Positions 13,861 through 54,088 of a DNA stretch of 64,000 nucleotides are shown in pieces; the stretch's first letter is position 1, and each line of letters opens with the position of its first letter. The stretch is from NCBI GenBank assembly GCA_964480845.1, contig CAYZRM010000001.1, positions 6,402 through 70,401 of the forward strand, read 5' to 3'. The notes beneath the pieces were generated by a model, which worked only from the letters and a program-made list of their open reading frames with translations, searched no databases and was not told the origin of the DNA. The DNA comes from an uncultured Coxiellaceae bacterium. GTDB taxonomy: Bacteria; Pseudomonadota; Gammaproteobacteria; DSM-16500. The translations under genes and the position numbers were made by a program.

Positions 13861-13964
13861 ATGACTCTCCTGGTAACAATCCATGTTGAAGGGTGGTTTA
13901 AGTTATCTATATCTATATGGGAATTAGTATATGTATGTTTTATCTGAGTTGCTAGAAATCTTTG

Positions 13965-33695: not shown

Positions 33696-33726
33696 TGTAA
33701 TTCTGTTTTGATTAACTGCGAAAAAT

Positions 33727-33755
33727 AAAAATCCCTCTTTCCAGGGGGATTTTTA
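33727..33755. terminator. Bidirectional terminator between convergent manC and gmd
   Basis: An A-run, stem aaaaatccc / gggattttt, then a T-run. The stem is weak. Confidence 0.45.
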
Positions 33756-33772
33756 TCTGGGGTAATTTTTGC

Positions 33773-37245: not shown

Positions 37246-37256
37246 GGACATTATTA

Positions 37257-38003
37257 ATGAGCGTAGTTAGATTAGAGGGTGTAAACCTTCATTATTCTTC
37301 GCTTGCATACCGCGAAACATCTTTCAAAGCTTATATCTTTAAGTCATTAGGCTTAAGAAGAAAAAAAATGATAGATAACGTACATGCTTTAAAAGACATA
37401 AATATCAGTATTCAGTCGGGGGATAGGCTGGGGTTAATAGGTCATAATGGCGCAGGTAAGAGCACTTTACTAAAAACAATCGCAGGGCTTTATCCAATAT
37501 CCTCTGGTAAAAGAGAGGTGAAAGGTAGAATACGTTCATTATTTGAGCTCAGTTTGGGTTTTGAAATGGAAGCATCGGGCAGAGAAAATATTTTCTACCG
37601 CGGGCTTTTACTGGGTCAGACGCCCGGAGAGATGAGCCGATTATCTAAAGAAATTATAGAGTTTACTAATATTGGTGAATTCATTGATTATCCAATTAAA
37701 ACGTACTCAGCAGGTATGTTGGTTAGATTAGCATTTGCCATTTCTACTTCTATTCCGGGTGACTTATTGCTACTTGATGAGGTAGTAGGTGCGGGTGACG
37801 CAGATTTTATGGCAAAATCAACGCAACGGATCAATCAGCTGATTAATAATTCTCAAATGATGGTTTTAGCTTCTCATGACTTTGCAGCAATACGGAATTT
37901 TTGTAATCGAGCGCTAGTGCTAAAACATGGCAATATATTATTTGATGGAGATGTGGAAGGAGCCATAGCGTGTTATCACAGATCAATGAAGATAGAAGCT
38001 TAA
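37257..38003 (+). CDS. wzt: Polysaccharide ABC exporter ATP-binding protein (Wzt, NBD only)
   Basis: Walker A GHNGAGKST, signature YSAGMLVRLAF, Walker B LLLLDEVVGAGD. At 248 aa it has no C-terminal carbohydrate-binding domain. Confidence 0.85.
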   Translation: MSVVRLEGVNLHYSSLAYRETSFKAYIFKSLGLRRKKMIDNVHALKDINISIQSGDRLGLIGHNGAGKSTLLKTIAGLYPISSGKREVKGRIRSLFELSLGFEMEASGRENIFYRGLLLGQTPGEMSRLSKEIIEFTNIGEFIDYPIKTYSAGMLVRLAFAISTSIPGDLLLLDEVVGAGDADFMAKSTQRINQLINNSQMMVLASHDFAAIRNFCNRALVLKHGNILFDGDVEGAIACYHRSMKIEA

Positions 38004-40327: not shown

Positions 40328-41973
40328 AAACCATAGGCATTTTTTTAGCTTACGCTCCTGAAGATCAAATTAAAAACCAAGGCATCGGTAGGCTGTTGGG
40401 TTTTTTGTTGTTAGGATTGCTTAAAGATCCAACAAATAAAGTTGTTATTGCAATGCCAGGTTGGTATGTCCAGGAAGTAATAAATTTTTTAAAAGATTTA
40501 GCCATAGATCAAGAAAGAATAGAGCTCATTTCAACACCTGGTTCACCTATTTTTGTAAAAATTAAAAAATTTTTACGGAAAAAGAAAAGCTCTACACAAT
40601 CGCCCCAGCAAGCAAGCGCAAGCGGGGCGCGTCGTTCAACTATGAAAAGATATTTTATTAATCCAGTTGTTACAATGGTCAAGCATTGGGTTTCTGCGCG
40701 CTCATTTCTGGTTTTTATGTTAGGTGCTTGTTTGGTAATGACGGCGACTTTATTAGCCATCCTTTTCTTTGTTCCGCTAGCTGTTATAACCAGCTTAGTT
40801 GTATTAATTGCGTTAGGGGTCTATAGTTTTAAAAAAGCAAGGCCTAGGTTGATGCAATTTTTGCTTACTAAAAAGCATATGCTTCCTATGGGGGGAGCTA
40901 AATCAAGGTTATTGAATGTTAAAAATATATTGGAAGCAGCCAGATATCGATGGCGACAGCGTGGGCAATTAATGTATTCTATTGAGTATAAAAAGCTAGC
41001 TAATAAGGTGAATAAAAGAAAGGATATACACGCATGGTTTATTCCTGCCTTATTTTGGCCTGAGATTAAGCACATAAAGGCAAAAAAAATTGTATCTGTA
41101 CCAGATGTAGTTTTTATTGAATTTCCTACGTTATTTATTGAAGCTGGTTATCGAAGAGATTTTCGTAGCTATGCTGAAACAATTTCAGTTGCTGACAATT
41201 TTATTTGTTACAGTGAATATGTAAAAGAAATGCATCTTATCAATAGTTTTGATATTGACCCTTCACGGATTTCAGTGATTCCTCATGGCGTTGTGCGGTC
41301 TGATGAACATTTTAAAGAGTTAGATCCAAGTAACTGGAGCCAAGAAGCCAAGCAAATTCTTTCTCAATTCCAGAAGAGTTATTTAAAAAATAACCAATAT
41401 TTGAGCAGCTTTGATTTTGGGAATGCCAAATATATTTTTTACTCTTCTCAAAGTAGGCCCTATAAAAATATTTTGAGTTTAGTGAAGGTTTATGAAAGAT
41501 TGCTAAGAGAGAATTTTTTAAATATAAAGCTTATTTTGACTGTTAATTTAGACCACGACAAGGCTCTAAAGGCTTATATTAAAGATAAAGATTTAGAAAA
41601 AGATGTACTTTGTCTACAGAATGTTTCAGCAAGAGTGCTAACTGCATTATATCAACGTGCTATATGTGCTGTTAATCCAACTTTATTTGAGGGGGGGTTC
41701 CCTTTCACATTTACAGAGGCTTATTCAGTCGGCACACCTTCTGTAATGAGCAATATTAATGTTGTCAATCGCCACATTAAAGATAATGAATTGAAAAATG
41801 TAATGTTATTTGATCCCTATGATTTGGATGATATGCTTCAAAAGATTGCTAGTGCTGTTAGGGATCCCGATGCTTTATATAAAATGCAGGCACCTTTATA
41901 CGCTGAATTTGAAAAACGTTCATGGGAGCAGGTAGCCGAAGAATATGCTAATGTGATTAAAAATGTAGCTTAA
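40312..41973 (+). CDS. GT4-family glycosyltransferase with an inserted basic linker and two-TM hairpin
   Basis: C-terminal GT4 motif NPTLFEGGFPFTFTEAYSVGTPSV. Insertion KKFLRKKKSSTQSPQQASASGARRS followed by FLVFMLGACLVMTATLLAILFFVPLAVITSLVVLIALGVYSF. I prefer the ATG at 40312 (GGAG 6 nt upstream). Confidence 0.65.
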   Translation: MEADVKTIGIFLAYAPEDQIKNQGIGRLLGFLLLGLLKDPTNKVVIAMPGWYVQEVINFLKDLAIDQERIELISTPGSPIFVKIKKFLRKKKSSTQSPQQASASGARRSTMKRYFINPVVTMVKHWVSARSFLVFMLGACLVMTATLLAILFFVPLAVITSLVVLIALGVYSFKKARPRLMQFLLTKKHMLPMGGAKSRLLNVKNILEAARYRWRQRGQLMYSIEYKKLANKVNKRKDIHAWFIPALFWPEIKHIKAKKIVSVPDVVFIEFPTLFIEAGYRRDFRSYAETISVADNFICYSEYVKEMHLINSFDIDPSRISVIPHGVVRSDEHFKELDPSNWSQEAKQILSQFQKSYLKNNQYLSSFDFGNAKYIFYSSQSRPYKNILSLVKVYERLLRENFLNIKLILTVNLDHDKALKAYIKDKDLEKDVLCLQNVSARVLTALYQRAICAVNPTLFEGGFPFTFTEAYSVGTPSVMSNINVVNRHIKDNELKNVMLFDPYDLDDMLQKIASAVRDPDALYKMQAPLYAEFEKRSWEQVAEEYANVIKNVA

Positions 41974-41976
41974 TAT

Positions 41977-42570
41977 ATGAATTTAATTATTTATGGTTGT
42001 GGTGGGCATGCAAGAAGCATTGCAGATGTAGCAATAGCTAATGGCTATTCTGAAATTACTTTTTTAGATGACTATGCAAAGCTAGAGGAAAAGATATTTA
42101 ATTTTCCTATACAAAAGGAAATAATTAATAGTCAATTATCAAGTATTGTTGGGCTGGGAGATAATAATAAGCGTAAACATCTGTTTGAACAGCTAGATCA
42201 AAAATTTATCATATCTTTAGTATCAAAAGATGCGTATCTTGGGCAAGAAGCTTGCATTGATAAAGGCACATTTATCGGTCATCAGGCTTATATAGGGCCA
42301 AATGCACAGGTTGGTAAAAATACGATTATTAATACCCGGTCAATCGTTGAACATGATTGCGTAATAGGCGATCATTCACATGTTTCTGTTGGTTCTATTA
42401 TGGCAGGAAAGGCTAAGCTTGGGGATAAGGTATTTTTAGGGGCTGGCGCAATAGTAGTTGATGGTATATCAGTATGTTCAGATGTTGTCATAGGTGCTGG
42501 CGCTGTTGTGACAAAAGATATAGTTGAGTCAGGAATTTACGTTGGTATACCAGCTTGTAAAATTAAATAG
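41977..42570 (+). CDS. NeuD/PglD/PerB-family sugar N-acetyltransferase (left-handed beta-helix)
   Basis: 197 aa. N-terminal Rossmann-like MNLIIYGCGGHARSIADVA, then hexapeptide repeats (IG..A.IGPNA.VG.NT.IN..S.V.HD..IGD.SH.S.G). The context with gmd/per suggests GDP-perosamine N-acetylation. Confidence 0.7.
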   Translation: MNLIIYGCGGHARSIADVAIANGYSEITFLDDYAKLEEKIFNFPIQKEIINSQLSSIVGLGDNNKRKHLFEQLDQKFIISLVSKDAYLGQEACIDKGTFIGHQAYIGPNAQVGKNTIINTRSIVEHDCVIGDHSHVSVGSIMAGKAKLGDKVFLGAGAIVVDGISVCSDVVIGAGAVVTKDIVESGIYVGIPACKIK

Positions 42571-42579
42571 ATCATCAGA

Positions 42580-42996
42580 ATGGCTAATATAATAAAGTTG
42601 ATAAAATCGATTTGTGCTTCTCAACCATTGCGTTTTCTTTTAGTCGGTGGTTTAAATACGCTATTTGGATACGCTGTATTTTCTATTTTCATTAGTTATC
42701 ATTTGCCTTATCAAATAGCAATGTTTTTAGCAACTTGCCTAGGAATATTGTTTAACTTTAAATCGGTGGGATATTTGGTTTTTAATAATAAGAAGAATCA
42801 CTTAATTTTTAAATTTATGCTGGTTTATTTTTTATTATACCTTGTTAATGTTAGCCTAATTTCTTTTCTTTCATTTATTTCACCCAACCTATATTTAAAT
42901 GGAATGATTGCCATTTTAATAACCGCCGTACTTAATTATTTTTTAAGTAAGCGCTTTATTTTTAAAGAAAATGAGTGTAGTTTGGCCCATCATTAA
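42580..42996 (+). CDS. GtrA-family membrane protein (polyprenol-phosphate-sugar flippase-like)
   Basis: 138 aa with 4 TM segments. N-terminal [21 protein letters not shown] and C-terminal [11 protein letters not shown] are typical of GtrA-like proteins. Confidence 0.75.
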
Positions 42997-43045
42997 TGCA
43001 GACGCATGTATGTGTATTAGGATAAAAAGGAAAGGAGAATATGCT

Positions 43046-43813
43046 ATGAAGGCAGTTATCTTAGCTGGGGGCTTAGGTACCCGAATCAGTGAAGAAACAA
43101 TTTTAAAACCAAAACCAATGATTGAAATTGGCGGGCGACCTATTCTTTGGCACATAATGAAGCATTATTCTGCTTATGGAATAAATGATTTTATTATTTG
43201 TTTGGGTTACAAAGGGTATGTTATTAAAGAATACTTTATTAACTATTTTCATCACATGTCAGATGTCACCATAGATATTCGAAATAATTCAACTGAAATT
43301 CATCAAAATAATTCTGAGCCTTGGCGTGTAACCTTGGTTGACACTGGCGAGCATTCTATGACGGGTGGTCGATTGAAACGGGTTGCACATCATTTGGGTG
43401 ATGAAGATTTTTGCTTTACGTATGGCGATGGCGTGTCAAATGTTAATATTAATGATCTGATTGATTTCCATAAAAAACAAGGTCGTTTAGCCACATTGAC
43501 AGCTATTAAGCCACCTGCACGTTTTGGTGCTATTAATATTGAGCAAGAAAAAATCACTAGTTTCCAAGAAAAGCCTTACGGCGGAAATGGTTGGGCGAAT
43601 GGTGGCTTTTTTGTTCTTTCCCCTAAGGTAATTGATTATATACAAGACGATCATACTATATGGGAGCGTGATCCGTTGGAGCGTTTAACGGAAGACCATC
43701 AAGTTTCTGCTTATCAGCATGAAGATTTCTGGTATGCAATGGATACGCTGAGAGATAAAAATTATCTTGAGCAATTATGGGAAAGTAAAGAAGCACCTTG
43801 GAAGGTTTGGTAA
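43046..43813 (+). CDS. rfbF: Glucose-1-phosphate cytidylyltransferase
   Basis: Collinear with the remembered Salmonella RfbF: [63 protein letters not shown]...MTGGRLKRV...MDTLRDK.YLE.LW...APWK.W. I prefer the ATG at 43046 (AAAGGAGA Shine-Dalgarno). Confidence 0.92.
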
Positions 43814-44874
43814 TGACCTCAGATTTTTGGAAAAATAAGAAAGTTTTCATAACAGGGCATACAGGCTTTAAGGGCAGCTGGCTATCTTTATGGTTGCAGG
43901 AATTAGGCGCAGAGGTGATAGGCTTTTCTTTAGAGCCATCAACCGCACCTAATCTTTTTACAGTTGCTGCTGTAGAAAAAAACATGAAAAGCTATATCGG
44001 CGATATCCGAGATTTTGATGCATTAAAGCGGGCTATTTCGGATACCAGACCAGACATCATCTTTCACATGGCTGCACAATCATTAGTTCGTTATTCATAC
44101 GATTATCCTATTGATACTTATGCTGTTAATGTGATGGGAACCGTTAATTTATTTGAAGCAGTGAGACAAGTAGGTGGTTGCAAAGCCATTGTCAATATTA
44201 CTTCAGATAAATGTTATGAAAATAAAGAATGGCATTGGGGTTATCGCGAGCATGATGTATTAGGTGGACATGATCCTTACAGTAATAGTAAGGCTTGTGC
44301 AGAACTTGTGACTGCTTCTTTCCGTGATTCATTCTTCAAAGCGCAGGGTTGCGGATTGGCCTCTGTGAGAGCTGGGAATGTAATAGGGGGCGGTGACTGG
44401 GCGTTAGATCGTTTAATTCCAGATTTAATGCGTAGTTTAATAAATGAGAAAGTATTCAGTGTTCGCTATCCACATGCTCTGCGTCCTTGGCAGCATGTAT
44501 TAGAGCCCTTGCATGGTTATTTATTAGTCGCAGAGCAATTATATCAGGCGCCTAGTGTTTATGCCGAAAGCTGGAATTTTGGCCCAGAAGAGAATGATGT
44601 TAAACCGGTTGAATGGATTATCAAGAAAGTTCAACAATTCTGGAAAGCCAATCTTACTTCTCAATATGATGCCAATGCAGTACAACGTCATGAAGCAACT
44701 TACCTTAAGTTAGATAGTTCTAAAGCAAAGAGTAAGCTGGGATGGAAGCCTAACTGGGATTTGGAAAAAGCGTTAGCTCAAACCGTTGATTGGTATCAAG
44801 CATATGCTAGAAAATCAGATATGCATCAGAAAACTTGCGCACAAATTAAAAAATATACTAGTTTACAAGGATAA
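43813..44874 (+). CDS. rfbG: CDP-glucose 4,6-dehydratase
   Basis: FWKNKKVFITGHTGFKGSWLSLWLQELGAEV is the RfbG N-terminus, and YSNSK is the catalytic YxxxK. The ATG at 43813 overlaps the rfbF TAA (TAATG). Confidence 0.9.
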   Translation: MTSDFWKNKKVFITGHTGFKGSWLSLWLQELGAEVIGFSLEPSTAPNLFTVAAVEKNMKSYIGDIRDFDALKRAISDTRPDIIFHMAAQSLVRYSYDYPIDTYAVNVMGTVNLFEAVRQVGGCKAIVNITSDKCYENKEWHWGYREHDVLGGHDPYSNSKACAELVTASFRDSFFKAQGCGLASVRAGNVIGGGDWALDRLIPDLMRSLINEKVFSVRYPHALRPWQHVLEPLHGYLLVAEQLYQAPSVYAESWNFGPEENDVKPVEWIIKKVQQFWKANLTSQYDANAVQRHEATYLKLDSSKAKSKLGWKPNWDLEKALAQTVDWYQAYARKSDMHQKTCAQIKKYTSLQG

Positions 44875-44880
44875 TATGAC

Positions 44881-46101
44881 ATGAGTTCAAATCAACCAAT
44901 AGCTGTCCCTTATGGAAAAACTGTGCATGGTGAAGAAGAAATTGCAGCAGTCGTTAATGTATTGCGTACCTCTACTCAAATGGGTAAGCATGTGCGTGAA
45001 ATGGAAGAGAAGGTAGCTGCTTTATTTAATAAAAAGCATGGCATTATGGTGAATTCTGGATCCTCTGCTAACTACTTAGCAATTGAAATTTTGCAATTAC
45101 CAGCCGGCTCTGAAGTGATTACCCCCGTGCTAACTTTTTCAACCACCGTGGCACCTTTAATTAAAAATAATTTAGTGCCTGTATTTATTGATGTAGAACC
45201 TGATACTTTCAATATTGATGCTGATCAAGTTGAAGCAATGATCACTGATAAAACAAAAGCAATGATGATTCCTAATTTATTAGGTAATTTACCTAACTGG
45301 AAAAAATTAAGAGAAATCGCTGATCGTTATAATTTGTTAGTGATAGAAGATTCTGCTGATACCTTGGGTGCCACCATTGAAAATGAATCTGCAGGTCGCT
45401 TTAGTGATATTAGCACCACCAGTTTCTACGGTTCACATGTGATTAACTGTGGCGGTAATGGCGGTATGTTATGCGTTAACAACGATGAATTAGCGAATCG
45501 TGCTAAATTGTTAAGAAGCTGGGGCCGTAGTTCTTCTTTATTTGTTGAATCTGAAGCGATTGAAAATCGATTCAATGTGCAAGTGGATGGCATGGAATAC
45601 GATGCTAAATTTTTATTTGAAGCATTAGGCTATAATCTTGAGCCATCTGAGATGGGCGCAGCATTTGGTTTAGTCCAGTTATCTAAATTAGACAATAATA
45701 TTGCTTTAAGAGAAAAAGCGTTTAAGCAACACCAAGAATTTTTTAACCAATACCAAGATTGGTTCATATTTTCTAAGCAATTACCAGCATCGAGAACTGG
45801 CTGGTTAGCGTTCCCCCTCATTGTTAAAAATACTGCGCCTTTCTCTAGAAGAGAATTGCAAATTTTCTTAGAGAAAAAGCTAATTCAAACCAGAACCATT
45901 TTTACTGGCAATATTTTACGTCAGCCAGGTTTCAAGCAGGTAGAAAGAAGAGAATCTGCTAACGGATATCCAAATGCAGATCAAGTTATGAAAGGCGGTA
46001 TGTTGATTGGTTGTCATCACGGGTTAACACCTGAAATGATGCAACACATACATCAATCATTCTTAGAGTTTGCTGCTCAATATAGTTCAGCAACAGTTTA
46101 A
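44881..46101 (+). CDS. DegT-fold NDP-4-keto-6-deoxyhexose 3-dehydratase (RfbH/E1/ColD-like; His replaces the PLP Lys)
   Basis: 406 aa. It aligns to the aminotransferase motif SFFGNKT..GEGG as SFYGSHVINCGGNGG, so the Schiff-base Lys is replaced by His, as in the E1/ColD dehydratases. There are only 3 Cys in the whole protein, so it cannot carry a 4-Cys [2Fe-2S] site. Confidence 0.7.
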   Translation: MSSNQPIAVPYGKTVHGEEEIAAVVNVLRTSTQMGKHVREMEEKVAALFNKKHGIMVNSGSSANYLAIEILQLPAGSEVITPVLTFSTTVAPLIKNNLVPVFIDVEPDTFNIDADQVEAMITDKTKAMMIPNLLGNLPNWKKLREIADRYNLLVIEDSADTLGATIENESAGRFSDISTTSFYGSHVINCGGNGGMLCVNNDELANRAKLLRSWGRSSSLFVESEAIENRFNVQVDGMEYDAKFLFEALGYNLEPSEMGAAFGLVQLSKLDNNIALREKAFKQHQEFFNQYQDWFIFSKQLPASRTGWLAFPLIVKNTAPFSRRELQIFLEKKLIQTRTIFTGNILRQPGFKQVERRESANGYPNADQVMKGGMLIGCHHGLTPEMMQHIHQSFLEFAAQYSSATV

Positions 46102-46112
46102 GGGGTGTATTA

Positions 46113-47912
46113 ATGCATAATTCTATTAGCAGTTATAAACATTCAATTAATAATTATTTTTCTTTTTTAAAAGAAACCACGCGTTTAGATGATTTACATA
46201 CTAAATCAATTTTATTACCTAACGACGCAGGTTATCTGTTGCCTGTTTGTGAGTTACATGCAACAGATAAGAATTTGATTAGCAAGTTTGCTAATTGGAG
46301 AAAGGAAAATGGCCAATTTTTCCCATCTCAGTTTCCTGTAACAGATGAAGGCACCACCACCTGGTTACGCAAGAGTGTCTTAGATGTTAAGGATAGAATT
46401 TTATTTTTAGTATTAGATAACCATGGCGAAGTGGTTGGTCATTTAGGATTTGCAAATGGTTTAAATGATCAAGGCGAATTAGAAGTTGATAATGTTGTGC
46501 GTGGCGTGAAACAAAGCCATGCCGGTATTATGCATCTTGCCATGCAAAAATTGATTGATTGGGCTGAAGAATTTATTGCCCCGGAAAAAATATTTTTACG
46601 CGTATTTAGCGATAATCAACATGCCATTAATTTTTATAAAAAACTTAGCTTCAAGGAAGATGGCCTTATTCCTTTAGCTAAGCATGTGGAAGGCGAAGCC
46701 GTATTTTATCGCGCCACTACCAGTGCTGATGAAAAAGTAGCGCAGCATTTTTTACGCATGGTATATGCACCAGCCAGATTAGAAAAAGCTGAGACCTTGA
46801 TTTCAACAGCTGGCCCTTCTATTTCAGCTCGTGAAGTTAGCTACGCAAATGATGCAGCTAGAAATGGCTGGAATGGGAAGTGGAATACTTATATTAAGAA
46901 ATTTGAAGAAACTTTCTGCGATTATATTGGTGTAAAGCATGCATTAACGACCTCTAGTTGCACGGGTGCACTTCACATTGCGCTTGCCGCTCTTGGTATT
47001 GGTCCTGGTGATGAAGTGATAGTGCCTGATATTACCTGGGTAGCAACAGCCAATGCAGTCGTTTACGTGGGTGCAACCCCAGTATTTGCTGATGTCGATT
47101 TAGATAGCTGGTGTATGACGCCTGAATCCTTCGAATCCTTAATTACTGAAAAAACAAAAGCAGTGATTCCTGTGCATTTATACGGCCATCCTGCTCCTAT
47201 TGAAGAAATTGTTAAAATTGCACGTAAGCACGGCTTGTATATCATCGAAGACGCAGCGCCTTCCGTTGGTGCTGAGTGGACGGGCCAGAAAGTAGGTACC
47301 TTTGGTGATTTTGCTGCATTTAGTTTCCAAGGTGCAAAATTAGCAGTCAGTGGTGAAGGCGGTATGCTAGTTACCAATAATGATGAGTTATTTGCGAAAG
47401 CATATGCCATTTGGGATCAGGGCCGCGAACCTAATACTTTCTGGATTAAGCAAAATGGCTTAAAATATAAGATGTCTAATGTCCAAGCAGCTATTGGTTT
47501 AGGGCAGGTAGAAAGAATTGTTGAGCTAATTGAAGCAAAACGTCGAATTTTCTCTTGGTATGCTGAGCATCTACAAGATACGCCGCATATTAAATTAAAT
47601 TATGAAGTGCCAAATGCTTATAGTATTTACTGGATGACTAGTATTATGGTAGATGATAAAAGTGGCATAGGACGTGATCGTTTGCGTGACGCTTTAAAAG
47701 CAAGAAATATAGATACACGTCCTGTATTTCCTGCCATTAGCCAGTATCCTCATTGGCCAAGAGCACAACAGGCACAAGTCAATTCATCTTACATTGGTAA
47801 GCAAGCAATTAACATGCCAAGTGGCGTCTGTCTAAAGCAAAGAGAAGTAGAATATATTTGTCGTTCATTAAAAGAAATTTTAGTGACACAAGATATTTTA
47901 ATTCCTGCTTAA
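46113..47912 (+). CDS. Fusion protein: N-terminal GNAT N-acetyltransferase + C-terminal DegT/ArnB-type sugar aminotransferase
   Basis: 599 aa. The first ~210 aa are GNAT-like (…VVGHLGF…GVKQSHAGIMHLAMQKLIDWAEE…INFYKKLSFKE). The remainder is DegT-like, with FSFQGAKLAVSGEGGMLV (Lys retained) and DTRPVFPAIS. Confidence 0.7.
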   Translation: MHNSISSYKHSINNYFSFLKETTRLDDLHTKSILLPNDAGYLLPVCELHATDKNLISKFANWRKENGQFFPSQFPVTDEGTTTWLRKSVLDVKDRILFLVLDNHGEVVGHLGFANGLNDQGELEVDNVVRGVKQSHAGIMHLAMQKLIDWAEEFIAPEKIFLRVFSDNQHAINFYKKLSFKEDGLIPLAKHVEGEAVFYRATTSADEKVAQHFLRMVYAPARLEKAETLISTAGPSISAREVSYANDAARNGWNGKWNTYIKKFEETFCDYIGVKHALTTSSCTGALHIALAALGIGPGDEVIVPDITWVATANAVVYVGATPVFADVDLDSWCMTPESFESLITEKTKAVIPVHLYGHPAPIEEIVKIARKHGLYIIEDAAPSVGAEWTGQKVGTFGDFAAFSFQGAKLAVSGEGGMLVTNNDELFAKAYAIWDQGREPNTFWIKQNGLKYKMSNVQAAIGLGQVERIVELIEAKRRIFSWYAEHLQDTPHIKLNYEVPNAYSIYWMTSIMVDDKSGIGRDRLRDALKARNIDTRPVFPAISQYPHWPRAQQAQVNSSYIGKQAINMPSGVCLKQREVEYICRSLKEILVTQDILIPA

Positions 47913-47926
47913 CTTCACTCTGTACA

Positions 47927-47954
47927 AAAGGCAAGATGCTCATCTTGTCTTTTG
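47927..47954 (+). terminator. Weak hairpin + T-tract between the GNAT-aminotransferase and GT2 genes (possible sub-operon boundary or attenuator)
   Basis: aaaaggcaaga-tgctca-tcttgtctttt, an AT-rich stem with one G-U pair. Confidence 0.3.
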
Positions 47955-47970
47955 CCTTAATGAGAATAGC

Positions 47971-48945
47971 ATGAAAAAACATATCAGTATCGTAACACCT
48001 TGTTACAATGAAGAGAAAAATGTTGAAGAGATTTATCATCAAGTTAAGATGGTGATGAATGGGTTGCCTCAATATACATATGAACATATCTTCATTGATA
48101 ACGCCTCTATAGATAAAACAGTTAATATTTTACGTCATATGGCAGCTCATGATAAAAACGTAAAAATTATTTGTAATGCTAGAAATTTTGGTCCTGTACG
48201 CTCTCCGTATTATGGTTTATTGCAAGCTAAAGGTGATGCTGTCGTTTGTATTTCAGCGGATTTGCAAGAGCCACCAACCTTAATTAAAGATTTTTTAGAA
48301 AAGTGGGAAGCCGGTTTTAAGGTTGTTGCTGGTACAAAAGCACAGAGCCGTGAGTCTAAGCTAATTTTCTTTTTACGTAAGCTATATTATCGCACCGTTT
48401 CTAAAATTTCAGATGTAAAATTAATTAGAAACTTTCATGGCTTTGGTTTATACGATAAAGCTGTTATTCAAGCGTTTAGAAAAATAGATGATCCTTATCC
48501 ATACCTACGTGGCTTGGTATCAGAAATTGGTTACAAAACCACAGAAGTACCGTATACACAAGAAGAACGTATGCATGGTAAATCGAAAGCGAACATCTTT
48601 GTCTTGTATGACTGGGTTATGTTAGGTATTACCAGTCATAGTAAATTTCCTATCCGACTAACCACGATGGTGGGGTTTAGCCTAGCCTTTTTAAGTTTTT
48701 TAGCTTCTATTGCATTTGTTGTATTAAAGCTAATGTTCTGGTCTAGTTTTAAATTGGGTGTGGCACCGTTATTAATTGGCTTATTTTTCTTTTCATCAAT
48801 ACAATTATTCTTTATTGGCTTATTAGGCGAATACATTATATCGATACATACACGTGTGATGAAAAGACCATTAGTGATAGAAGACGAAAGGGTTAATTTT
48901 GATGAAGCGAATGAAGATAAGCAATTATATTGCCGTGTTTCTTAA
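47971..48945 (+). CDS. GT2 polyprenol-phosphate glycosyltransferase (ArnC/GtrB/DPM1-like)
   Basis: Collinear with the remembered ArnC: ISIVTPCYNEE, IFIDNAS.D.T, SADLQEPP. Two C-terminal TM helices end in GLLGEYIISIHTRV (compare ArnC GLLGEYIGRIYTDV). Confidence 0.85.
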   Translation: MKKHISIVTPCYNEEKNVEEIYHQVKMVMNGLPQYTYEHIFIDNASIDKTVNILRHMAAHDKNVKIICNARNFGPVRSPYYGLLQAKGDAVVCISADLQEPPTLIKDFLEKWEAGFKVVAGTKAQSRESKLIFFLRKLYYRTVSKISDVKLIRNFHGFGLYDKAVIQAFRKIDDPYPYLRGLVSEIGYKTTEVPYTQEERMHGKSKANIFVLYDWVMLGITSHSKFPIRLTTMVGFSLAFLSFLASIAFVVLKLMFWSSFKLGVAPLLIGLFFFSSIQLFFIGLLGEYIISIHTRVMKRPLVIEDERVNFDEANEDKQLYCRVS

Positions 48946-50632
48946 GGTTCAGGAAACTGATCATGTATTTGAGGTAGCAGGCGGTATGATTACCCATATG
49001 CTAGACTCATTGCATAATGTCGGTAGGACGAAAATTATTAGTGTTCATCATGAACAATCTTCTTCATTTGCTGTTGATGCTTACGGGCGATGCACTGGTC
49101 GCCCTAGTATTGCATTTGCCACTAGCGGTCCGGGTGCAACCAATTTGTTAACTGGTATAGGGAGCTGTTATTTTGATTCATCACCAGCTCTTTTTATTAC
49201 TGGCCAGGTCAACACCCATGAGCAAAAAAGAGATAAGCCAATTAGGCAATTAGGTTTCCAAGAAACAGACATTGTTTCTATGGCAAAACCAATTACTAAA
49301 AAAGTTTATCAGGTTGAAAGAGCTGAAGATTTTGAAGCTATTTTAAAAGAAGCTTACACCTTAACAATGAGTGGTAGGCCGGGCCCTGTTTTAATTGATA
49401 TTCCAATGAATATACAATCGGCTCAAATTGATGTTAGCGATATTGAATATATTCCCATACCGCAGGTAGATCAATTTCAAGAAATTAGTAAATTAATATT
49501 GTTAGAGCAGGCAATTAAGCAAGCTAAGAAACCTTTAATACTGGCAGGACAAGGCATCTCTTGTGCGCGTGCTAGAGCTGAATTTATTACCTTTATTGAA
49601 AAGCTAAATATTCCTGTCGTTTCTTCTTTGCTAGGCCTAGATTTATTGCCGTTTGATCACGCTTTACGTGTAGGTATGATAGGTAGTTATGGTAATCGTT
49701 GGGCTAATTTAGCGATTGGAGAAGCTGACTTATTAATTGTTCTCGGTAGCCGATTAGATATTCGACAAACCGGTGCGCATATTGATGGTTTTAGGCAAAA
49801 TAAGACAATTTTCCACATTGATTGCGATGCAGGTGAAATTAATAACCGCATGAAAGATTGCACTCCTATTGTGGCGGATGCCAACGATTTCTTGCTGAAA
49901 GCAAATCATTACTATCAAGCGCAAACCTTCCCTTCATTTAATGATTGGTTAGCTGACATTAACGCTTTAAAGGCGAAATGGCCTGATACGAATGAACTGC
50001 AAGGCTTTAAAGGTATTAATCCTAATGAGTTTATGCATGCTTTGTCAGCTGCAGCTAAAGATAGTGCAGCTTATCTAGTTGATGTGGGTAATCATCAGAT
50101 GTGGTCGGCTCAATCAATTGACCTTCATAAAAATCAATTATTTATTACAACGGGCGGTATGGGCGCTATGGGGTTTGCCTTGCCTGCCGCAATAGGTGCT
50201 TGTTTTGCTCTAAAGCAACAACCTGTCGTTGTTATTGCGGGTGATGGTGCATTTCAAATGAATATCCAAGAGCTGCAAACGATAGTTAGAAATAAGCTAC
50301 CTATTAAAATAGTCATTATCAACAATCAGGCATTAGGCATGATTAGGCAGTTTCAAGATAGCTATTTTGATAAACGCTACCAGTCAACCTATTGGGGTTA
50401 TAGCGCGCCTGATTTCTCTGCTGTTGCAAATGCTTACGGTATACCAGCCACTACGATAGATGCGACAGATGCTATACAAGAAGCGGTTGCCTGGCTGACA
50501 AGCCAACCTTCTGCTGCATTGTTGCAGGTAATGGTAGATACTCACATGAATGCTTATCCTAAAATAGCATTTGGTAAACCCATTACTGAAATGGAGCCAT
50601 TTGCTAAACCGGTAGAAATGGAAAGTACCTAA
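48902..50632 (+). CDS. Thiamine-diphosphate enzyme of the acetolactate-synthase large-subunit family (YerE-like candidate)
   Basis: About 575 aa. N-terminal Pyr domain (HEQSSSFAVDAYGR..GRP.IAFATSGPGATNLLTGI) and the ThDP motif GDGAFQMNIQELQTIVRNKLPIKIVIINNQALG (GDG...NN). No ilvN/ilvC neighbour. The start overlaps the 3' end of the GT2 gene. Confidence 0.8.
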   Translation: MKRMKISNYIAVFLKVQETDHVFEVAGGMITHMLDSLHNVGRTKIISVHHEQSSSFAVDAYGRCTGRPSIAFATSGPGATNLLTGIGSCYFDSSPALFITGQVNTHEQKRDKPIRQLGFQETDIVSMAKPITKKVYQVERAEDFEAILKEAYTLTMSGRPGPVLIDIPMNIQSAQIDVSDIEYIPIPQVDQFQEISKLILLEQAIKQAKKPLILAGQGISCARARAEFITFIEKLNIPVVSSLLGLDLLPFDHALRVGMIGSYGNRWANLAIGEADLLIVLGSRLDIRQTGAHIDGFRQNKTIFHIDCDAGEINNRMKDCTPIVADANDFLLKANHYYQAQTFPSFNDWLADINALKAKWPDTNELQGFKGINPNEFMHALSAAAKDSAAYLVDVGNHQMWSAQSIDLHKNQLFITTGGMGAMGFALPAAIGACFALKQQPVVVIAGDGAFQMNIQELQTIVRNKLPIKIVIINNQALGMIRQFQDSYFDKRYQSTYWGYSAPDFSAVANAYGIPATTIDATDAIQEAVAWLTSQPSAALLQVMVDTHMNAYPKIAFGKPITEMEPFAKPVEMEST

Positions 50633-50645
50633 TTAATATCAGCGG

Positions 50646-52340
50646 ATGATTAAATCATCCGCTACTCATAGATGTATTATAAAAGTGTATAATTTAACTA
50701 AAAGTTCTCAGTCTATTTTAATTATTCTTGGCTTAAGCTGCGTGATAGGTCTGTCTTGGTGGCTTAGCTACTATGGTTTTCCCTTTAACGATGAAAGCTT
50801 TCCACTAGCCACGTCTTTGCGTTTTGTTAATGGGCAAATTCCATTTAAAGATGATTTATCGCCTTACATAGGCATAGGTTTATTTTTAGCACCATTTATT
50901 AAATTGAGTTTGCTGCTGCATCAAGGAACCAATGAGTTAGTATTATTTATGCGGCAGCTATTTATTGCTTTTACTATGTTAGGCGCTCTTAGAATATATT
51001 ATGTCACTAAACAATATTGGGACACTGCTTTAGCTTTTTTCACAGCGTGTATGCTTATTGTTTATCATCCATTTGGCATTAATAATTTTCATTACGATAC
51101 AATGGCGGAAGTATTGTGGCCTTTAATATTGTTTAGTCTAGTTAATTTCGTAAGAAAGCCAGATAGCAGTAAAATAGCCTATATCATATTTTCGCTTTTA
51201 AGCTGTTTACTATGTCTTATTTATCCTACCTTTGCGCCATTTTTATTGGCGCTATATGTTGCTTGCCATTGTTGGATAAAGGATAAATTTATCTTTTGGT
51301 TTACGAATGTCGTGGTGGGTTCTTTAGTTGCCGCATTATTTTTAGGATTACTGTTTGGGTATTATAAAATTACAGGCGTCGATATTTTGCATGCTAAAGA
51401 GTTTAGTAGCCAATTGTTCGCGCTATCAACTACTGAGCATGGTCTAATAGGCAAAATTATAACTGTTTTTAGTCACCTGGTGCATGCGTATTGGAAATAT
51501 ATTATTTGTAGTTTTCTATTAGTGGGGTCAGCCGCTTTATTCAAAAAAAACTGGTTCACATTATTGGTCTTGGGCGTTTTATTTCTTCTTCCCCTTACTG
51601 GTATGTCATTTGCTCAAATTTATTTTCCTGATATATTTTACTACTTTAATTGTATTGGATTGTTAGGCCCTATCATTTATTGGTTGTTGTATCAGCCAGC
51701 AGGGGAAGACAAAAAATTATTTAACATTTTATTTCTAGCATCATTAGCAGCTGGTTTTTTAATTAGCGTAACAAGCTACAACCTAGATTTAAATTTTAAT
51801 ATCGGCTTTTTCCCTGCCACTTTGCTGGGCTTTTTTATTGCCTACCTAACTATTAAGCAGTGCTATCCTAAGCGATTTTATCAATACTCAGTGCTTATTT
51901 ATGGCTTGCTATTAACGGCTTTTTTTCAATGGAATGCTATCTACGCAGTGAGTGATAGAGGCATAGATATTTATAAAAATGCAGAAGTCTATGATACAAA
52001 AGGCGCATTGTATGGTCTTTATTTTCATCCATATTGGATGAAAATAGCAGAAGATCTGCAGCAAGATTTAGCAAAGTTAGATACTAACGAAAAAACATTT
52101 GTTTATTTTGGCGCATTTTCTGTTGGGTATTTATTGGTTAATCATTTAAAGCCAGGTGAATATCTATTGTTTTCTCCGTATAACTTAAACCATTTCGGTG
52201 CGGCGGTACGTTTTCCTAATATTACGATAGATTTATCGCGTTCTTTAGGCTTGCCTGATGACCATATTAAGGCTTATCTAAGCGGTGGAGCTTATAGAAA
52301 AATAATAACCAAACAGTACTACGATATTTACCAAGGATGA
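50646..52340 (+). CDS. Polytopic membrane protein, putative GT-C-fold glycosyltransferase (ArnT/PMT-like architecture)
   Basis: 564 aa with >10 predicted TM segments. An acidic motif sits in the first extracytoplasmic loop just after TM1 (YYGFPFNDESFPLA). A soluble C-terminal region of ~110 aa follows. The start is uncertain because the ATG at 50646 lies inside a hairpin. Confidence 0.5.
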   Translation: MIKSSATHRCIIKVYNLTKSSQSILIILGLSCVIGLSWWLSYYGFPFNDESFPLATSLRFVNGQIPFKDDLSPYIGIGLFLAPFIKLSLLLHQGTNELVLFMRQLFIAFTMLGALRIYYVTKQYWDTALAFFTACMLIVYHPFGINNFHYDTMAEVLWPLILFSLVNFVRKPDSSKIAYIIFSLLSCLLCLIYPTFAPFLLALYVACHCWIKDKFIFWFTNVVVGSLVAALFLGLLFGYYKITGVDILHAKEFSSQLFALSTTEHGLIGKIITVFSHLVHAYWKYIICSFLLVGSAALFKKNWFTLLVLGVLFLLPLTGMSFAQIYFPDIFYYFNCIGLLGPIIYWLLYQPAGEDKKLFNILFLASLAAGFLISVTSYNLDLNFNIGFFPATLLGFFIAYLTIKQCYPKRFYQYSVLIYGLLLTAFFQWNAIYAVSDRGIDIYKNAEVYDTKGALYGLYFHPYWMKIAEDLQQDLAKLDTNEKTFVYFGAFSVGYLLVNHLKPGEYLLFSPYNLNHFGAAVRFPNITIDLSRSLGLPDDHIKAYLSGGAYRKIITKQYYDIYQG

Positions 52341-54088
52341 AACAGGAGTTTAAGGTGGAAAAAACAAGTTATTTAAAAAGTATCATGGAATATACATTAG
52401 CATTTGTATTATCAATTGTTATTTATTTGTTGGTGTCGGGTACTTATCATCATCATACTTTAACAGTTTTGTATGATTACAATGGCGATGGGCTTTTTGC
52501 TGCTTCTTGGGTCAAATCCATCATTGAGCATGGCTGGTATTTATCTAATGAAAATTTAGGTGCGCCTAACGGCTACAATATGATCGACTTTCCCATGGCG
52601 GATAACTTTCATTTCCTTATTCTAAAAGGCTTGACCCTCTTTTCTAGTAATTATGCAGTAGTCGTAAATTTATTTTTTTTATTAACATTTCCCTCTATTA
52701 CGCTGATGACGTTATTTGTTTTAAAGCGATTTAATATTATTTACCCGTTTGCTTTAGTAGCTAGCTTATTATTCGCTTTTGTGCCTTATCATTTTGAACA
52801 TGGTCAATGGCACATCTTTTTATCCTCTTACTATGTTATTCCATTAGTCATATGGATCGCTTTATCTGTTACCGAAAGAGGTGCTTTAAATTTTATTTCT
52901 AATAGTGCTTATATTAGGTGGGGTGTTTTAACATTACTTTGTTTGCTCATCGGTTCATCAGGTATTTATTATGCATTTTTTGGTGTTTTCTATTTATTAA
53001 TGGCAGGCTTAATTGTTAGCGTGGTCAGAAGAGAATGGTTGCCTATTATACGGACGATGATACTGACAGGCTTGATTGTTGGAGCTGGGATATTAAATGT
53101 ATCAACTTATTTATTATACGGCCATGCCACAGAATCTGTTCAGCGCCATCCTGTAGAATCTGAAGTATACAGCATGAAGATTACGCCTTTGCTCTTACCC
53201 GCGGAGTTTCATCGCGTTGAGCCTTTAGCCAACTTCAAGCATTTTTATACCTCTACCACCAAGGGTAATGCAGGGATGACTTGCTCTTTAGGATTTATTG
53301 GTAGCCTTGGGTTCTTGTTTTTATTAGCAGCTATTATTTTTAGAAACGATGAAATAAAAAATGTAAAACCAGGCATGTCAGATTTTAATTTGATTGCAAA
53401 ATTAAATTTGTGTGGTGTGCTATTTGCAACAATGGGAGGATTTGGTGCTTTATTTGCTTATACCATTTCTCCTATGATTAGATGCTACGATAGAATGAGT
53501 ATTTTTCTAGCATTTTTCGCTTTTTATGCTTTCTTCTTTTTATTGCAAAGAAAATGGGTAGCGCATTACGGCACGACTAAGAATAAGTTACTCTGGCTAT
53601 TGTCATTGTTATTATTAGTACTTGGTATGTTAGATATCACTGTCAAAGATCATCTAACTAATTATATTAAGGTTAGTTCTACTCGTGTCATTAAGGCAAA
53701 AGTAGATAATGACAGGCACTTTGTACGTGAAGTAGAAAAGGTTATCCCTGCAGGTGGTATGGTTTTCCAACTACCTTATGTTATTTTTCCTGAAGCAAAT
53801 TATGAACACTTCCGGCCTTATCTCCACTCTAAGCATACGAAATGGAGTTTTGGTACCATGGCTGGTAGTAAAGTAGATGCATGGCAAAAACAAGTAGCTC
53901 TTTTACCACCTGCAGAAATGGTGGCAGAGTTAAAACGTGCAGGTTTTATTGGTATTTATATAAATAGAGATTTATATACTGATAAAGGGGTTGAGGTTGA
54001 GCTCGAAAAACAATTAACGTATTTAACTAAGAGTCAGCCTATTGTAAGCGAGAATGCTAGTTTAAGTTTTTTCTTAATCCCTAATTAA
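52337..54088 (+). CDS. Polytopic membrane protein with a ~150-aa C-terminal periplasmic domain, second putative GT-C-type transferase
   Basis: 583 aa. After TM1: YDYNGDGLF...LGAPNGYNMIDFPMADNFH, an acidic loop. About 11 TM segments. 4-nt overlap (ATGA) with the upstream gene. Confidence 0.45.
   Translation: MKQEFKVEKTSYLKSIMEYTLAFVLSIVIYLLVSGTYHHHTLTVLYDYNGDGLFAASWVKSIIEHGWYLSNENLGAPNGYNMIDFPMADNFHFLILKGLTLFSSNYAVVVNLFFLLTFPSITLMTLFVLKRFNIIYPFALVASLLFAFVPYHFEHGQWHIFLSSYYVIPLVIWIALSVTERGALNFISNSAYIRWGVLTLLCLLIGSSGIYYAFFGVFYLLMAGLIVSVVRREWLPIIRTMILTGLIVGAGILNVSTYLLYGHATESVQRHPVESEVYSMKITPLLLPAEFHRVEPLANFKHFYTSTTKGNAGMTCSLGFIGSLGFLFLLAAIIFRNDEIKNVKPGMSDFNLIAKLNLCGVLFATMGGFGALFAYTISPMIRCYDRMSIFLAFFAFYAFFFLLQRKWVAHYGTTKNKLLWLLSLLLLVLGMLDITVKDHLTNYIKVSSTRVIKAKVDNDRHFVREVEKVIPAGGMVFQLPYVIFPEANYEHFRPYLHSKHTKWSFGTMAGSKVDAWQKQVALLPPAEMVAELKRAGFIGIYINRDLYTDKGVEVELEKQLTYLTKSQPIVSENASLSFFLIPN

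Follow-up and report, generated by a model that had tools for sequence, protein, structure and literature searches.

A gene block in an uncultured Coxiellaceae bacterium predicted to encode an extracytoplasmic glycosylation module with its donor sugar made on CDP

The window analysed here is a 64,000-nucleotide stretch of contig CAYZRM010000001.1 (positions 6,402 to 70,401, assembly GCA_964480845.1) from an uncultured Coxiellaceae bacterium. Where an earlier note on this DNA had described nine co-directional, tightly packed genes, all nine ORFs are present on the + strand (42580-54088) with gaps between genes of 6-58 nt. These genes and the region preceding them are as follows.

32259..42570, no strand assigned: preceding portion of the polysaccharide locus to which the nine genes belong, encoding the probable acceptor glycan (Pfam and NCBIfam matches, gene calls)
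42580..42996, + strand: GtrA-like small 4-TM protein, putative flippase of a polyprenyl-phosphate-linked sugar (PF04138, 59.8 bits)
43046..43813, + strand: glucose-1-phosphate cytidylyltransferase, RfbF/DdhA type (TIGR02623, 457.6 bits, cut-off 300)
43813..44874, + strand: CDP-glucose 4,6-dehydratase, RfbG/DdhB type (TIGR02622, 513.7 bits, cut-off 278)
44881..46101, + strand: PMP-dependent CDP-4-keto-6-deoxyglucose 3-dehydratase, His-type (RfbH-like, 328 bits, below the cut-off of 423)
46113..47912, + strand: fusion of a GNAT N-acetyltransferase and a sugar aminotransferase (PF00583, PF13302, PF01041)
47971..48945, + strand: polyprenyl-phosphate glycosyltransferase, GT2, of the GtrB/ArnC/DPMS class, distinct 'IDNxS' subfamily (alignment to GtrB and ArnC)
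48902..50632 (ORF from 48899), + strand: YerE-like ThDP-dependent carboligase with three domains (PF02776, PF00205, PF02775)
50646..52340, + strand: predicted GT-C-fold polytopic glycosyltransferase, family 1 (AlphaFold2 model, Foldseek)
52337..54088, + strand: predicted GT-C-fold polytopic glycosyltransferase, family 2 (AlphaFold2 model, Foldseek)

Overlapping stops and starts had also been claimed, and gene calls bear this out for rfbF/rfbG (1 nt), GT2/ThDP (~44 nt) and GT-C1/GT-C2 (4 nt). For GtrA/rfbF the apparent overlap probably arises from extension of the ORF: an upstream extension of rfbF to 42971 is possible, and the gene call on an identical contig begins at window position 43046. 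The rfbG ORF is likewise extendable, to 43798. In the window, the nine-gene module follows, on the 3´ side, from a wzm/wzt O-polysaccharide locus whose upstream part contains manC, gmd (- strand), a perosamine-synthase-like DegT gene, wzm, wzt, two GT4 genes and a gene for a NeuD/PglD-type N-acetyltransferase. The two GT4 enzymes could in principle use a CDP-sugar. Inside the module, neither the domain search nor the gene calls revealed a Leloir glycosyltransferase.

The CDP-glucose entry assigned earlier to rfbF and rfbG is upheld, both products scoring above their curated cut-offs, while the onward route to a CDP-3,6-dideoxyhexose needed correction. The closest solved relatives of the 3-dehydratase are E1 (3bcx, 230 bits) and ColD (172 bits), and, as previously noted, a His occupies the position of E1 His220 (SFYGSHV). 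The E1 iron-sulfur cysteines are absent, with the E1 motif DCYCAPGCDNTC replaced by SSSLFV-ESEAIE in the window's dehydratase and every Legionellales-type orthologue, and no E3-like reductase gene was found in the block by ORF list or domain search. The enzyme is thus not of the E1/E3 type and, lacking these cysteines, is ColD-like in logic. The ThDP enzyme, first described as acetolactate-synthase-like, does have the three-domain ThDP architecture and can now be refined to a known kind, the YerE-type branched-sugar carboligases. Its scores do not reach the acetolactate synthase equivalog cut-offs, and its closest solved relative, 5ahk, which we take to be the Pseudomonas protegens YerE homologue, scores 440 bits, compared with 315 bits for a genuine acetolactate synthase. 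YerE-type chemistry has been described (PMC12247030, PMC9306805). In loci with a close ThDP orthologue, that gene is found within the CDP-3,6-dideoxy gene set or next to it; other kinds of branching enzyme (split transketolase, B12-radical SAM, aldolases) also occur with this set.

Pfam detected both domains of the proposed GNAT-aminotransferase fusion, a GNAT domain at residues about 60-185 (PF00583 and PF13302 at residues 66-181) and a DegT aminotransferase domain at residues 230-590 (PF01041, 367.6 bits, residues 236-586), with the Lys present. The fusion is also encoded at L005, L007 and L012, and L022 carries GNAT and aminotransferase as separate genes together with a transketolase-type ThDP branching enzyme. 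Orthologous ThDP genes are accompanied by either a reductase or the GNAT-aminotransferase, never both. The yersiniose-type clusters of Legionella micdadei and relatives have the reductase, and the presence of the GNAT-aminotransferase in its place suggests that the sugar of the window variant is acetamido-branched.

Among solved structures, the aminotransferase domain is closest to GDP-perosamine synthase (284 bits), a C4 aminotransferase, and might therefore act on C4, competing with the ThDP enzyme. In a somewhat unlikely version of events, the same delivery system would handle two sugars, with the fusion acting on C4 to give a 4-acetamido-3,4,6-trideoxyhexose, the ThDP enzyme making a separate branched sugar, and each GT-C protein possibly serving one donor. 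This would fit the similarity to C4 aminotransferases and the presence of two unrelated GT-C genes, but a single GT2 and a single GtrA would have to serve both donors, and the ThDP product, without a reductase, would retain a free acetyl ketone. The mutual exclusion of reductase and aminotransferase-GNAT beside orthologous ThDP genes, and the recurrence of aminotransferase and GNAT with a ThDP branching enzyme in L022, also argue for one acetamido-branched sugar, which we prefer.

The first eight genes are found in identical order in L005, L007 and L012 (opposite strand), from other Legionellales genomes, with protein identities of 37-76% to the window block, and this recurrence rules out a chance arrangement. 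The co-occurrence envisaged for all nine genes thus holds for eight, which are conserved as a unit in Legionellales, whereas the ninth, encoding GT-C family 2, is a variable partner there and a widespread partner elsewhere. In loci of 31-64% GC the gene order is shuffled and the gene set retained, and in many of these independently rearranged loci the GT2 gene is interleaved among the sugar-synthesis genes. In L005, L007, L013, L041, L053 and L078, the sugar-synthesis genes, GT2 and GT-C have no further glycosyltransferase gene between them.

Residues 5-304 of the GT2 align with Synechocystis GtrB (5ekp, 180 bits) and ArnC (about 100 bits), a match that takes in both TM helices at the C-terminus; judged by this full-length alignment, which agrees with the initial ArnC/GtrB-like assignment, the protein belongs structurally to the polyprenyl-phosphate glycosyltransferases. 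Its best NCBIfam match is PgfS (192 bits, far under the cut-off of 500), and it scores 127 bits against the ArnC profile (cut-off 529). In ArnC, D48 contacts the nucleotide UDP (PMC12690121). The window GT2 has Asn at this position and Ser in place of the first Asp of the DxD motif, and all 120 of its 120 best homologues have DN at the D48 position. In SpsA, the equivalent Asp presumably contacts uracil N3. Across 27 GT2s of the collected loci, the residue is Asn in 19 and Asp in 8, and CDP-hexose genes lie within 3 kb of 15 of the 19 Asn-type compared with 1 of the 8 Asp-type enzymes (Fisher p = 0.0025, a value that ignores relatedness among the GT2s). Six GT2-anchored look-ups, chosen with their context unknown, placed rfbF, rfbG and dehydratase genes directly beside the GT2 in five cases. 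We infer that the GT2 uses a CDP-sugar. A 61%-identical GT2 from Polaromonas (L095) is encoded in a plain GtrA-GT2-polytopic cassette with CDP genes absent within 10 kb, indicating either that the GT2 clade is not always CDP-linked or that the pathway lies elsewhere in that genome.

These data also bear on the alternative, which we judge unlikely, that two functions are simply co-located, a Gtr-type system adding glucose or another common UDP-sugar in the periplasm while the CDP-sugar is incorporated in the cytoplasm by a Leloir transferase (e.g. an upstream GT4), as in Yersinia. For GtrB-type enzymes characterised to date, the donors are UDP-sugars (PMC11127046, PMC12698845), the yersiniose clusters of Yersinia and Pseudomonas have been read as a cytoplasmic route (PMC4509608, PMC9306805), and the Polaromonas cassette and the GT4 genes upstream in the window would be in line with such a division. 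Co-location is harder to reconcile with the interleaving of the GT2 gene in rearranged loci, the lack of another glycosyltransferase gene in the six loci named above, the outcome of the blind look-ups, and the alteration of the nucleotide-contact Asp in exactly the CDP-linked GT2s.

The flippase gene proposed earlier is supported by its PF04138 match, and GtrA homologues are encoded in the same block in L005, L007, L009, L012, L024, L094, L096 and L099. Neither polytopic protein has a Pfam or NCBIfam match, but AlphaFold2 and Foldseek, the latter a check named beforehand, predict a GT-C fold for both, in agreement with their original description as GT-C-like. The family 1 model (pLDDT 79.7, pTM 0.82) matches STT3, PglB, ArnT and AglB (E 6e-4 to 8e-3, probability 1.0), and D49, E50, D69 and D70, located after TM1, are invariant. 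Twenty close homologues were found in a wider family of 1763 representatives, and the close relatives are restricted to Legionellales. Family 2 (pLDDT 90.9, pTM 0.92; matches to STT3, DPY19, ArnT and AftA, E 2e-6 to 2e-4, probability 1.0) is unrelated to family 1 by hhalign and is widespread, with a precomputed DUF6311 tag on some homologues. In metagenome loci of 31-64% GC, its genes are linked to CDP-hexose, branching-enzyme and GT2 genes; among 45 family 2-anchored metagenome loci of at least 10 kb, rfbF and rfbG are present in 9, rmlA in 1 and manC in 3. An unrelated role for the GT2 and GT-C genes, raised at the outset as an objection, is not what we found, given the conservation of the block as a unit, a GT2 of polyprenyl-phosphate type and the predicted GT-C fold.

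We propose, with a probability of roughly 0.6, that the block encodes a self-contained module of three components for glycosylation outside the cytoplasm, with the donor sugar synthesised on CDP. Conservation, the GT2-anchored look-ups and the D-to-N change, all read from sequence, support the periplasmic glycan-modification module fed by a CDP-hexose branch that the earlier note had put forward. By analogy with well-characterised families, RfbF would produce CDP-glucose, RfbG would convert it to CDP-4-keto-6-deoxyglucose, the His-type PMP dehydratase would take off the 3-OH without E3, in a ColD-like manner, to give CDP-4-keto-3,6-dideoxyglucose, and the YerE-like enzyme would add an acetyl branch from pyruvate at C4. 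The side-chain carbonyl would be the only one left after branching, so the fusion would act on the branch, and by our own reading would aminate and N-acetylate it to yield CDP-4-C-(1-acetamidoethyl)-3,6-dideoxyhexose. The GtrB/ArnC-type GT2 would then move the sugar off CDP and onto undecaprenyl phosphate, GtrA would flip the lipid-linked sugar, and the two GT-C enzymes would attach it in the periplasm, most likely to the ABC-transporter-exported O-polysaccharide encoded just upstream, which is probably poly-N-acetylperosamine.

We consider it doubtful that the acceptor is instead lipid A/core (Arn, Flm, Lgm) or a periplasmic or surface protein (Pgf, Streptococcus mutans). PgfS is the best, though sub-threshold, NCBIfam match of the GT2, and in L005 and L007 the module is present with wzm/wzt not in the short flanks, yet in the window it continues a wzm/wzt O-polysaccharide locus, and GT-C family 2 shares its locus with wzt in 14/45 and gmd in 10/45 of the metagenome loci. 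Far less probable is that the GT2 moves an early intermediate (glucose from CDP-glucose, or a 4-keto sugar), with deoxygenation, branching and amination occurring on the lipid-linked sugar. ArnD, which acts on Und-P-Ara4FN, is a precedent for tailoring a lipid-linked sugar. DprE1/E2 and ORF13, which epimerise lipid-linked pentoses (PMC11127046), are further precedents. Against this reading, RfbG, E1/ColD-type dehydratases and YerE have all been characterised on soluble NDP-sugars (PMC12247030), and the RfbG, dehydratase and ThDP enzymes here have no membrane segment. For transfer of the completed CDP-sugar, the reading we retain, the lipid-carrier route is known for common UDP sugars, and we found none for a CDP-linked, branched, nitrogen-bearing deoxy sugar. 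The novelty claimed earlier is consistent with our literature search, which found no characterised cluster that explains the locus by cytoplasmic transfer only.

The uncharacterised Legionella micdadei/Tatlockia cluster (CP020614, L094), one of the five positive look-ups, carries rfbF, dehydratase, GT2, SDR, GtrA, ThDP and family-2 GT-C genes together. Its rfbF, GtrA, dehydratase (751 bits), GT2 (64% identity), family-2 GT-C (497 bits against the family profile) and ThDP enzyme (799 bits) are orthologous to those of the window, but an SDR reductase takes the place of the GNAT-aminotransferase fusion, and no family-1 GT-C adjoins the module. Yersiniose A is a known constituent of L. micdadei LPS (PMC7867332), which makes this cluster a natural reference case.

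Among known systems, the closest three-component relatives are GtrA/GtrB/GtrC O-antigen glucosylation (Shigella and Salmonella phages), Synechocystis GtrB, gmlABC and the GT136 systems, which likewise combine a GT-C transferase and a small GtrA flippase with a polyprenyl-phosphate GT2 that has two TM helices at its C-terminus, and which share with the window, probably, post-export O-polysaccharide modification. The window module differs in encoding its own donor pathway from CDP-glucose rather than relying on a housekeeping UDP-sugar or PRPP, in the Asn at the nucleotide-contact Asp and the missing first Asp of the DxD motif in its GT2, and in that neither GT-C protein matches a Pfam GT-C family. 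The Arn pathway (ArnA, B, C, D, E, F, T; L-Ara4N on lipid A) shares the logic of aminotransferase, N-acylation, GT2 transfer to undecaprenyl phosphate, flipping and GT-C transfer; this parallel, drawn earlier, holds insofar as the order of steps would be common to both by our gene assignments. In contrast to Arn, the window has no ArnA-type decarboxylase/formyltransferase and no deformylase, its flippase is GtrA rather than ArnE/F, its chemistry is CDP-based rather than UDP-based, and its acceptor is probably different. The CDP-yersiniose A pathway of Yersinia pseudotuberculosis O:6 (DdhA-D, YerE, YerF) shares CDP-glucose entry, 4,6-dehydration, PMP-dependent C3 deoxygenation and ThDP-dependent C4 branching. 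Relative to that pathway, the window module has no E3 (DdhD) and a dehydratase that lacks the E1 iron-sulfur cysteines, the GNAT-aminotransferase fusion replaces the YerF reductase, and the predicted delivery relies on GT-C enzymes and a lipid carrier instead of a Leloir transferase in the cytoplasm.

The block at 42580-54088 was described in an earlier note as nine tightly packed, co-directional genes that form a lipid-carrier glycan-modification pathway fed by a CDP-sugar branch, and this interpretation is the best-supported one. For the model as a whole, in which a sugar made on CDP is converted to a predicted polyprenyl-phosphate-linked donor and then transferred by GT-C enzymes, we estimate a probability of about 0.6. 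Between 42580 and 54088, nine ORFs run in the same (plus) direction, encoding GtrA, RfbF, RfbG, a His-type 3-dehydratase, a GNAT-aminotransferase fusion, a GT2, a probable YerE-like ThDP enzyme and two polytopic proteins (GT-C families 1 and 2), and the block extends a run of plus-strand genes beginning at 35372. ORFs, curated models and gene calls confirm the nine-gene arrangement; according to gene calls from identical contigs, rfbF and rfbG overlap by 1 nt, the GT2 and ThDP genes by about 44 nt and the two GT-C genes by 4 nt, with remaining intergenic gaps of 6-58 nt. Counts in the promoter and terminator scan were under the shuffle expectation, and the sole candidate signals 3´ of 54088 were a weak hairpin and one promoter-like site. 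Curated models, the HMM check proposed for each product, match the first seven products.

The entry into the pathway is well defined. RfbF and RfbG match the equivalog models for glucose-1-phosphate cytidylyltransferase (TIGR02623, 457.6 bits, cut-off 300) and CDP-glucose 4,6-dehydratase (TIGR02622, 513.7 bits, cut-off 278). The RfbH-like PLP/PMP enzyme scores 328 bits, under the cut-off of 423, and aligns over its full length with Yersinia E1 (3bcx, 230 bits) and ColD (172 bits). As had been proposed, it retains a His at the position of the Schiff-base Lys (SFYGSHV in the alignment to E1). All of the E1 cysteines are missing, with IEDSAD and SSSLFV-ESEAIE in the window enzyme in place of IEDCCD and DCYCAPGCDNTC in E1, which rules out a classical E1 carrying a [2Fe-2S] cluster. 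The missing cysteines, together with the absence of an E3-like reductase gene from the block, argue that the protein is a predicted 3-dehydratase of ColD-like logic rather than part of a classical E1/E3 pair. This Cys-less His-type dehydratase is almost invariant across related low-GC loci; the Cys-containing E1 type is found in loci of other phyla.

The predicted lipid-carrier functions are encoded by the GtrA, GT2 and polytopic protein genes. Residues 5-304 of the GT2 align with Synechocystis GtrB (5ekp, 180 bits), and the protein also aligns with ArnC (about 100 bits); the alignment takes in the C-terminal TM pair, with D96, Q98 and the RNFG motif retained. This full-length match places the GT2 among the polyprenyl-phosphate glycosyltransferases, which combine a GT-A domain with juxtamembrane helices and a pair of TM helices at the C terminus, as the label ArnC/GtrB-like had implied. 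GtrA is assigned to its family by PF04138 (59.8 bits, cut-off 26.1). Neither polytopic protein has a match in Pfam or NCBIfam, nor did a scan of every member of each family give one, and these scans did not recover the DUF6311 tag that is precomputed for some homologues. AlphaFold2 models were confident for both (pLDDT 79.7 for family 1, 90.9 for family 2), and in Foldseek, which had been suggested as a check, the only significant PDB matches of either were GT-C enzymes (STT3, PglB, AglB, ArnT, AftA and DPY19), with a probability of 1.0 to STT3, PglB, ArnT and AftA for both, so that the GT-C fold is predicted as anticipated. Invariant acidic residues lie just past TM1 (D49/E50 in family 1, D51 in family 2) and would face the periplasm in the first periplasmic loop. 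The two proteins are not a duplicated pair, as the families are unrelated in profile-profile comparison. Family 1 has 20 close homologues among 5.8 billion proteins, all of those with names being from Legionella or Tatlockia, and 1763 representatives in a wider profile search. The homologues of the block suggest that the window comes from a member of the Legionellales.

Several fetched loci carry other membrane proteins near such genes. In a Gammaproteobacteria MAG (L007), a 117-aa EamA/SMR-like protein lies directly 5´ of GtrA (1266-1996), and the two may form a two-part flippase by analogy with ArnE/F; a YfhO-like GT-C protein of 773 aa is encoded 3´ of the module in the same locus (13593-15914). 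At L010 12631-18752, the order is rfbG, SDR, DN-type GT2, rfbF, an LPG_synthase_TM (MprF-flippase-like) protein and an amine oxidase, and in the Legionella micdadei genome (L094, 16444-20736) an SDR, DN-type GT2, LPG_synthase_TM protein and amine oxidase occur together, with rfbF/rfbG not inside the stretch. The MprF-like protein may replace GtrA there as flippase of a lipid-linked sugar derived from a CDP-6-deoxyhexose. A second exotic module adjoins family 1 GT-C homologues in Legionella sp. (L003, 1-9688) and Tatlockia (L009, 1023-9703), consisting of GtrA, an AMP-dependent ligase, GNAT, SDR, carrier protein, hexapeptide acyltransferase, two methyltransferases, a GT2 of the NDGS type and WbqC, which points to a further lipid-carrier route that would handle an N-acylated amino sugar.

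Genome co-occurrence of the nine genes, a further check that had been proposed, was examined in loci fetched with GT-C family 1. The eight genes from GtrA to the family 1 GT-C are found in identical order in Legionella sp. 515359 (L005) and in L007, and the ninth gene, for GT-C family 2, is missing from both; the block is conserved as a unit for eight of its nine genes in these two loci. At L012, the opposite strand carries the seven genes from GtrA to the ThDP enzyme as a group, and both GT-C families, including the ninth gene, have homologues elsewhere in the locus; the set is present but rearranged in the Tatlockia MAG (L009).

A metagenome scan with GT-C family 2 gave 80 loci at 33-41% identity, 45 of them of at least 10 kb. 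Among these 45, rfbF and rfbG were present in 9, an RfbH/ColD-type dehydratase in 8, a ThDP enzyme in 5 and a GtrB-like GT2 in 10; for comparison, rmlA was present in 1, manC in 3 and gmd in 10. The family 2 loci range from 31 to 64% GC, and their gene order is shuffled with the GT2 placed among the sugar genes. Previously unnamed genes in between encode SDR reductases, a split transketolase (L053 6849-8615; L022 14844-16660), and a B12-radical SAM enzyme with an HMGL/DmpG-type aldolase (L078 789-7687), the last three within the CDP-dideoxy/GT2/GT-C gene set; all are plausible alternative tailoring or branch-building enzymes, and those in L053, L022 and L078 would predict a range of unknown branched sugars. 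Approaching the question from the GT2, whose best 120 homologues are 60-76% identical, we looked up six blind to context. In five of the six, rfbF, rfbG and dehydratase genes directly adjoin the GT2, with or without the ThDP gene; the sixth, from Polaromonas aquatica, sits in a simple cassette of GtrA, GT2 and a polytopic protein. Among the five is the complete genome of L. micdadei, a cultivable pathogen, where the order is rfbF, dehydratase, GT2, SDR, GtrA, ThDP (minus strand) and next a family 2 GT-C (497 bits to the family profile). Chemical analysis has established that L. micdadei LPS contains yersiniose A (PMC7867332, which cites Sonesson and Jantzen 1992). The module type appears widespread.

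GtrB-type enzymes take a UDP-sugar (PMC11127046), and we compared the window GT2 with the motif residues of UDP-using members (D94/D96 in GtrB; D48 and D100/D102 in ArnC). The canonical DxD and the nucleotide-contact Asp are not kept. In place of IDADLQDPP in GtrB, the window GT2 has ISADLQEPP, retaining the second Asp and the Gln with Ser for the first Asp, a position that is Ser, Ala or Val in IDNxS GT2s. In place of IDDGS in ArnC and NDGS in GtrB, it has IDNAS; the Asp in the ArnC motif, D48, hydrogen-bonds UDP (PMC12690121). The window GT2 and each of its 120 best homologues have Asn at the D48 position (IDNxS). CDP-hexose genes lie within 3 kb of 15 of the 19 GT2s in fetched loci that have Asn here, and of 1 of the 8 other GT2s, which have Asp (Fisher p = 0.0025, relatedness not accounted for). 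Which atom of UDP is contacted by the Asp is not specified in the GtrB and ArnC papers. Because the equivalent Asp39 of SpsA presumably binds uracil N3, the change from Asp to Asn would be expected if the enzyme had come to recognise cytosine in place of uracil.

The ThDP enzyme has three domains and falls under every acetolactate synthase equivalog cut-off, scoring 440 bits to 5ahk, which we take to be the YerE homologue of Pseudomonas protegens (PpYerE), versus 315 bits or less to true acetolactate synthases. The scores under the cut-offs, a missing small subunit and the conserved context led us to reject a stray acetolactate synthase. In the window and in related loci, the gene sits with those for CDP-4-keto-3,6-dideoxyglucose, the compound to which YerE-type enzymes attach an acyl branch (PMC12247030, PMC9306805). 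Orthologous ThDP genes (780-960 bits) adjoin either an SDR, the yersiniose type (L009, L013, L094, L098 and L099), or the GNAT-aminotransferase (window, L005, L007 and L012), never both, and no SDR that could be a YerF-type reductase is encoded within 42580-54088. In the window protein, the GNAT domain is fused to a DegT-type aminotransferase; at L022 (62% GC), the aminotransferase and GNAT are encoded by two genes, and the branching enzyme that accompanies them in this gene set is of the transketolase type. The 3-dehydratase step would use the 4-keto group and ThDP-dependent branching would then consume it, so a carbonyl would remain only in the side chain. Read most simply, this would mean amination and N-acetylation of the acetyl branch by the fusion protein. 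Since the aminotransferase has C4 aminotransferases as its closest solved relatives, action at C4, the carbon whose keto group the branching step would use up, is a serious alternative to modification of the branch.

The acceptor may be encoded nearby. Other features of the window are:

13965-19253, minus strand, 1762-aa multidomain protein with Ser/Thr protein kinase, AAA_16/STAND NTPase, GAF and adenylate/guanylate cyclase domains
26280-28322, minus strand, 680-aa fusion of a VTT/DedA domain, PAP2 phosphatase and LssY_C domain
32259-42570, gmd on the minus strand, O-polysaccharide locus upstream of the block with manC, gmd, a perosamine-synthase-like DegT, wzm, wzt, two GT4 and a NeuD/PglD-type (PerB-like) N-acetyltransferase
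59513-61345, plus strand, 610-aa ORF with no Pfam match

The locus at 32259-42570 is ABC-transporter-dependent, with a Wzt of 248 aa that has no carbohydrate-binding extension and GT4 proteins of 785 and 557 aa. Its product would be poly-N-acetylperosamine, and this glycan is the probable acceptor of the module. Proteins of the PAP2 and DedA types have been connected with the recycling of undecaprenyl phosphate, and the fusion at 26280-28322 therefore might matter for lipid-carrier supply. Downstream of the block are a GmhA-like SIS protein and clpB; such a GmhA-like SIS-domain protein is found with these modules in three unrelated loci (window 54228-54818, L010 4036-4662 and L024 15224-15823), and heptose synthesis is one possible role for it.

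The earlier note knew of no characterised system that takes a CDP-3,6-dideoxy sugar, aminated or C-branched, to a polyprenol-phosphate carrier, and we found no CDP-sugar-fed route to polyprenyl phosphate in the open-access literature, where searches on yersiniose and GtrB, CDP-glucose with polyprenol phosphate and GT-C, Legionella and GtrA, and DUF6311 gave no prior description. A more far-reaching proposal is tentative, and we consider it unlikely to hold in all its parts together: that IDNxS GT2s are a widespread unrecognised subfamily taking CDP-3,6-dideoxyhexoses, often C4-branched, that yersiniose-type sugars are commonly delivered outside the cytoplasm by lipid carrier and GT-C, and that the window sugar is an undescribed 4-C-(1-acetamidoethyl)-3,6-dideoxyhexose. 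If true, IDNxS would be a simple sequence marker for annotating CDP-sugar-dependent GT2s, the attachment of rare branched sugars in Legionella and several other phyla would be explained, and new antigenic sugars would be predicted.

Compared with known systems, the sugar route resembles the Yersinia yersiniose pathway, from which the block differs in having no E1 cysteines, E3 or YerF. The parallel drawn to Arn stands for the shared logic of amination and N-acylation but not for membership, since the GT2 scores 127 bits against the ArnC cut-off of 529 (NF007986) and equivalents of ArnA, ArnD and ArnT are missing from the block, in which neither a decarboxylase/formyltransferase nor a deformylase domain occurs. 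The module follows the same scheme as the three-component Gtr, gml and GT136 systems. Periplasmic three-component glycosylation is viewed in the literature as using common UDP-sugars, GDP-mannose or PRPP-derived pentoses, and a CDP-sugar-dependent subfamily, if real, would extend this route to a new class of donor.
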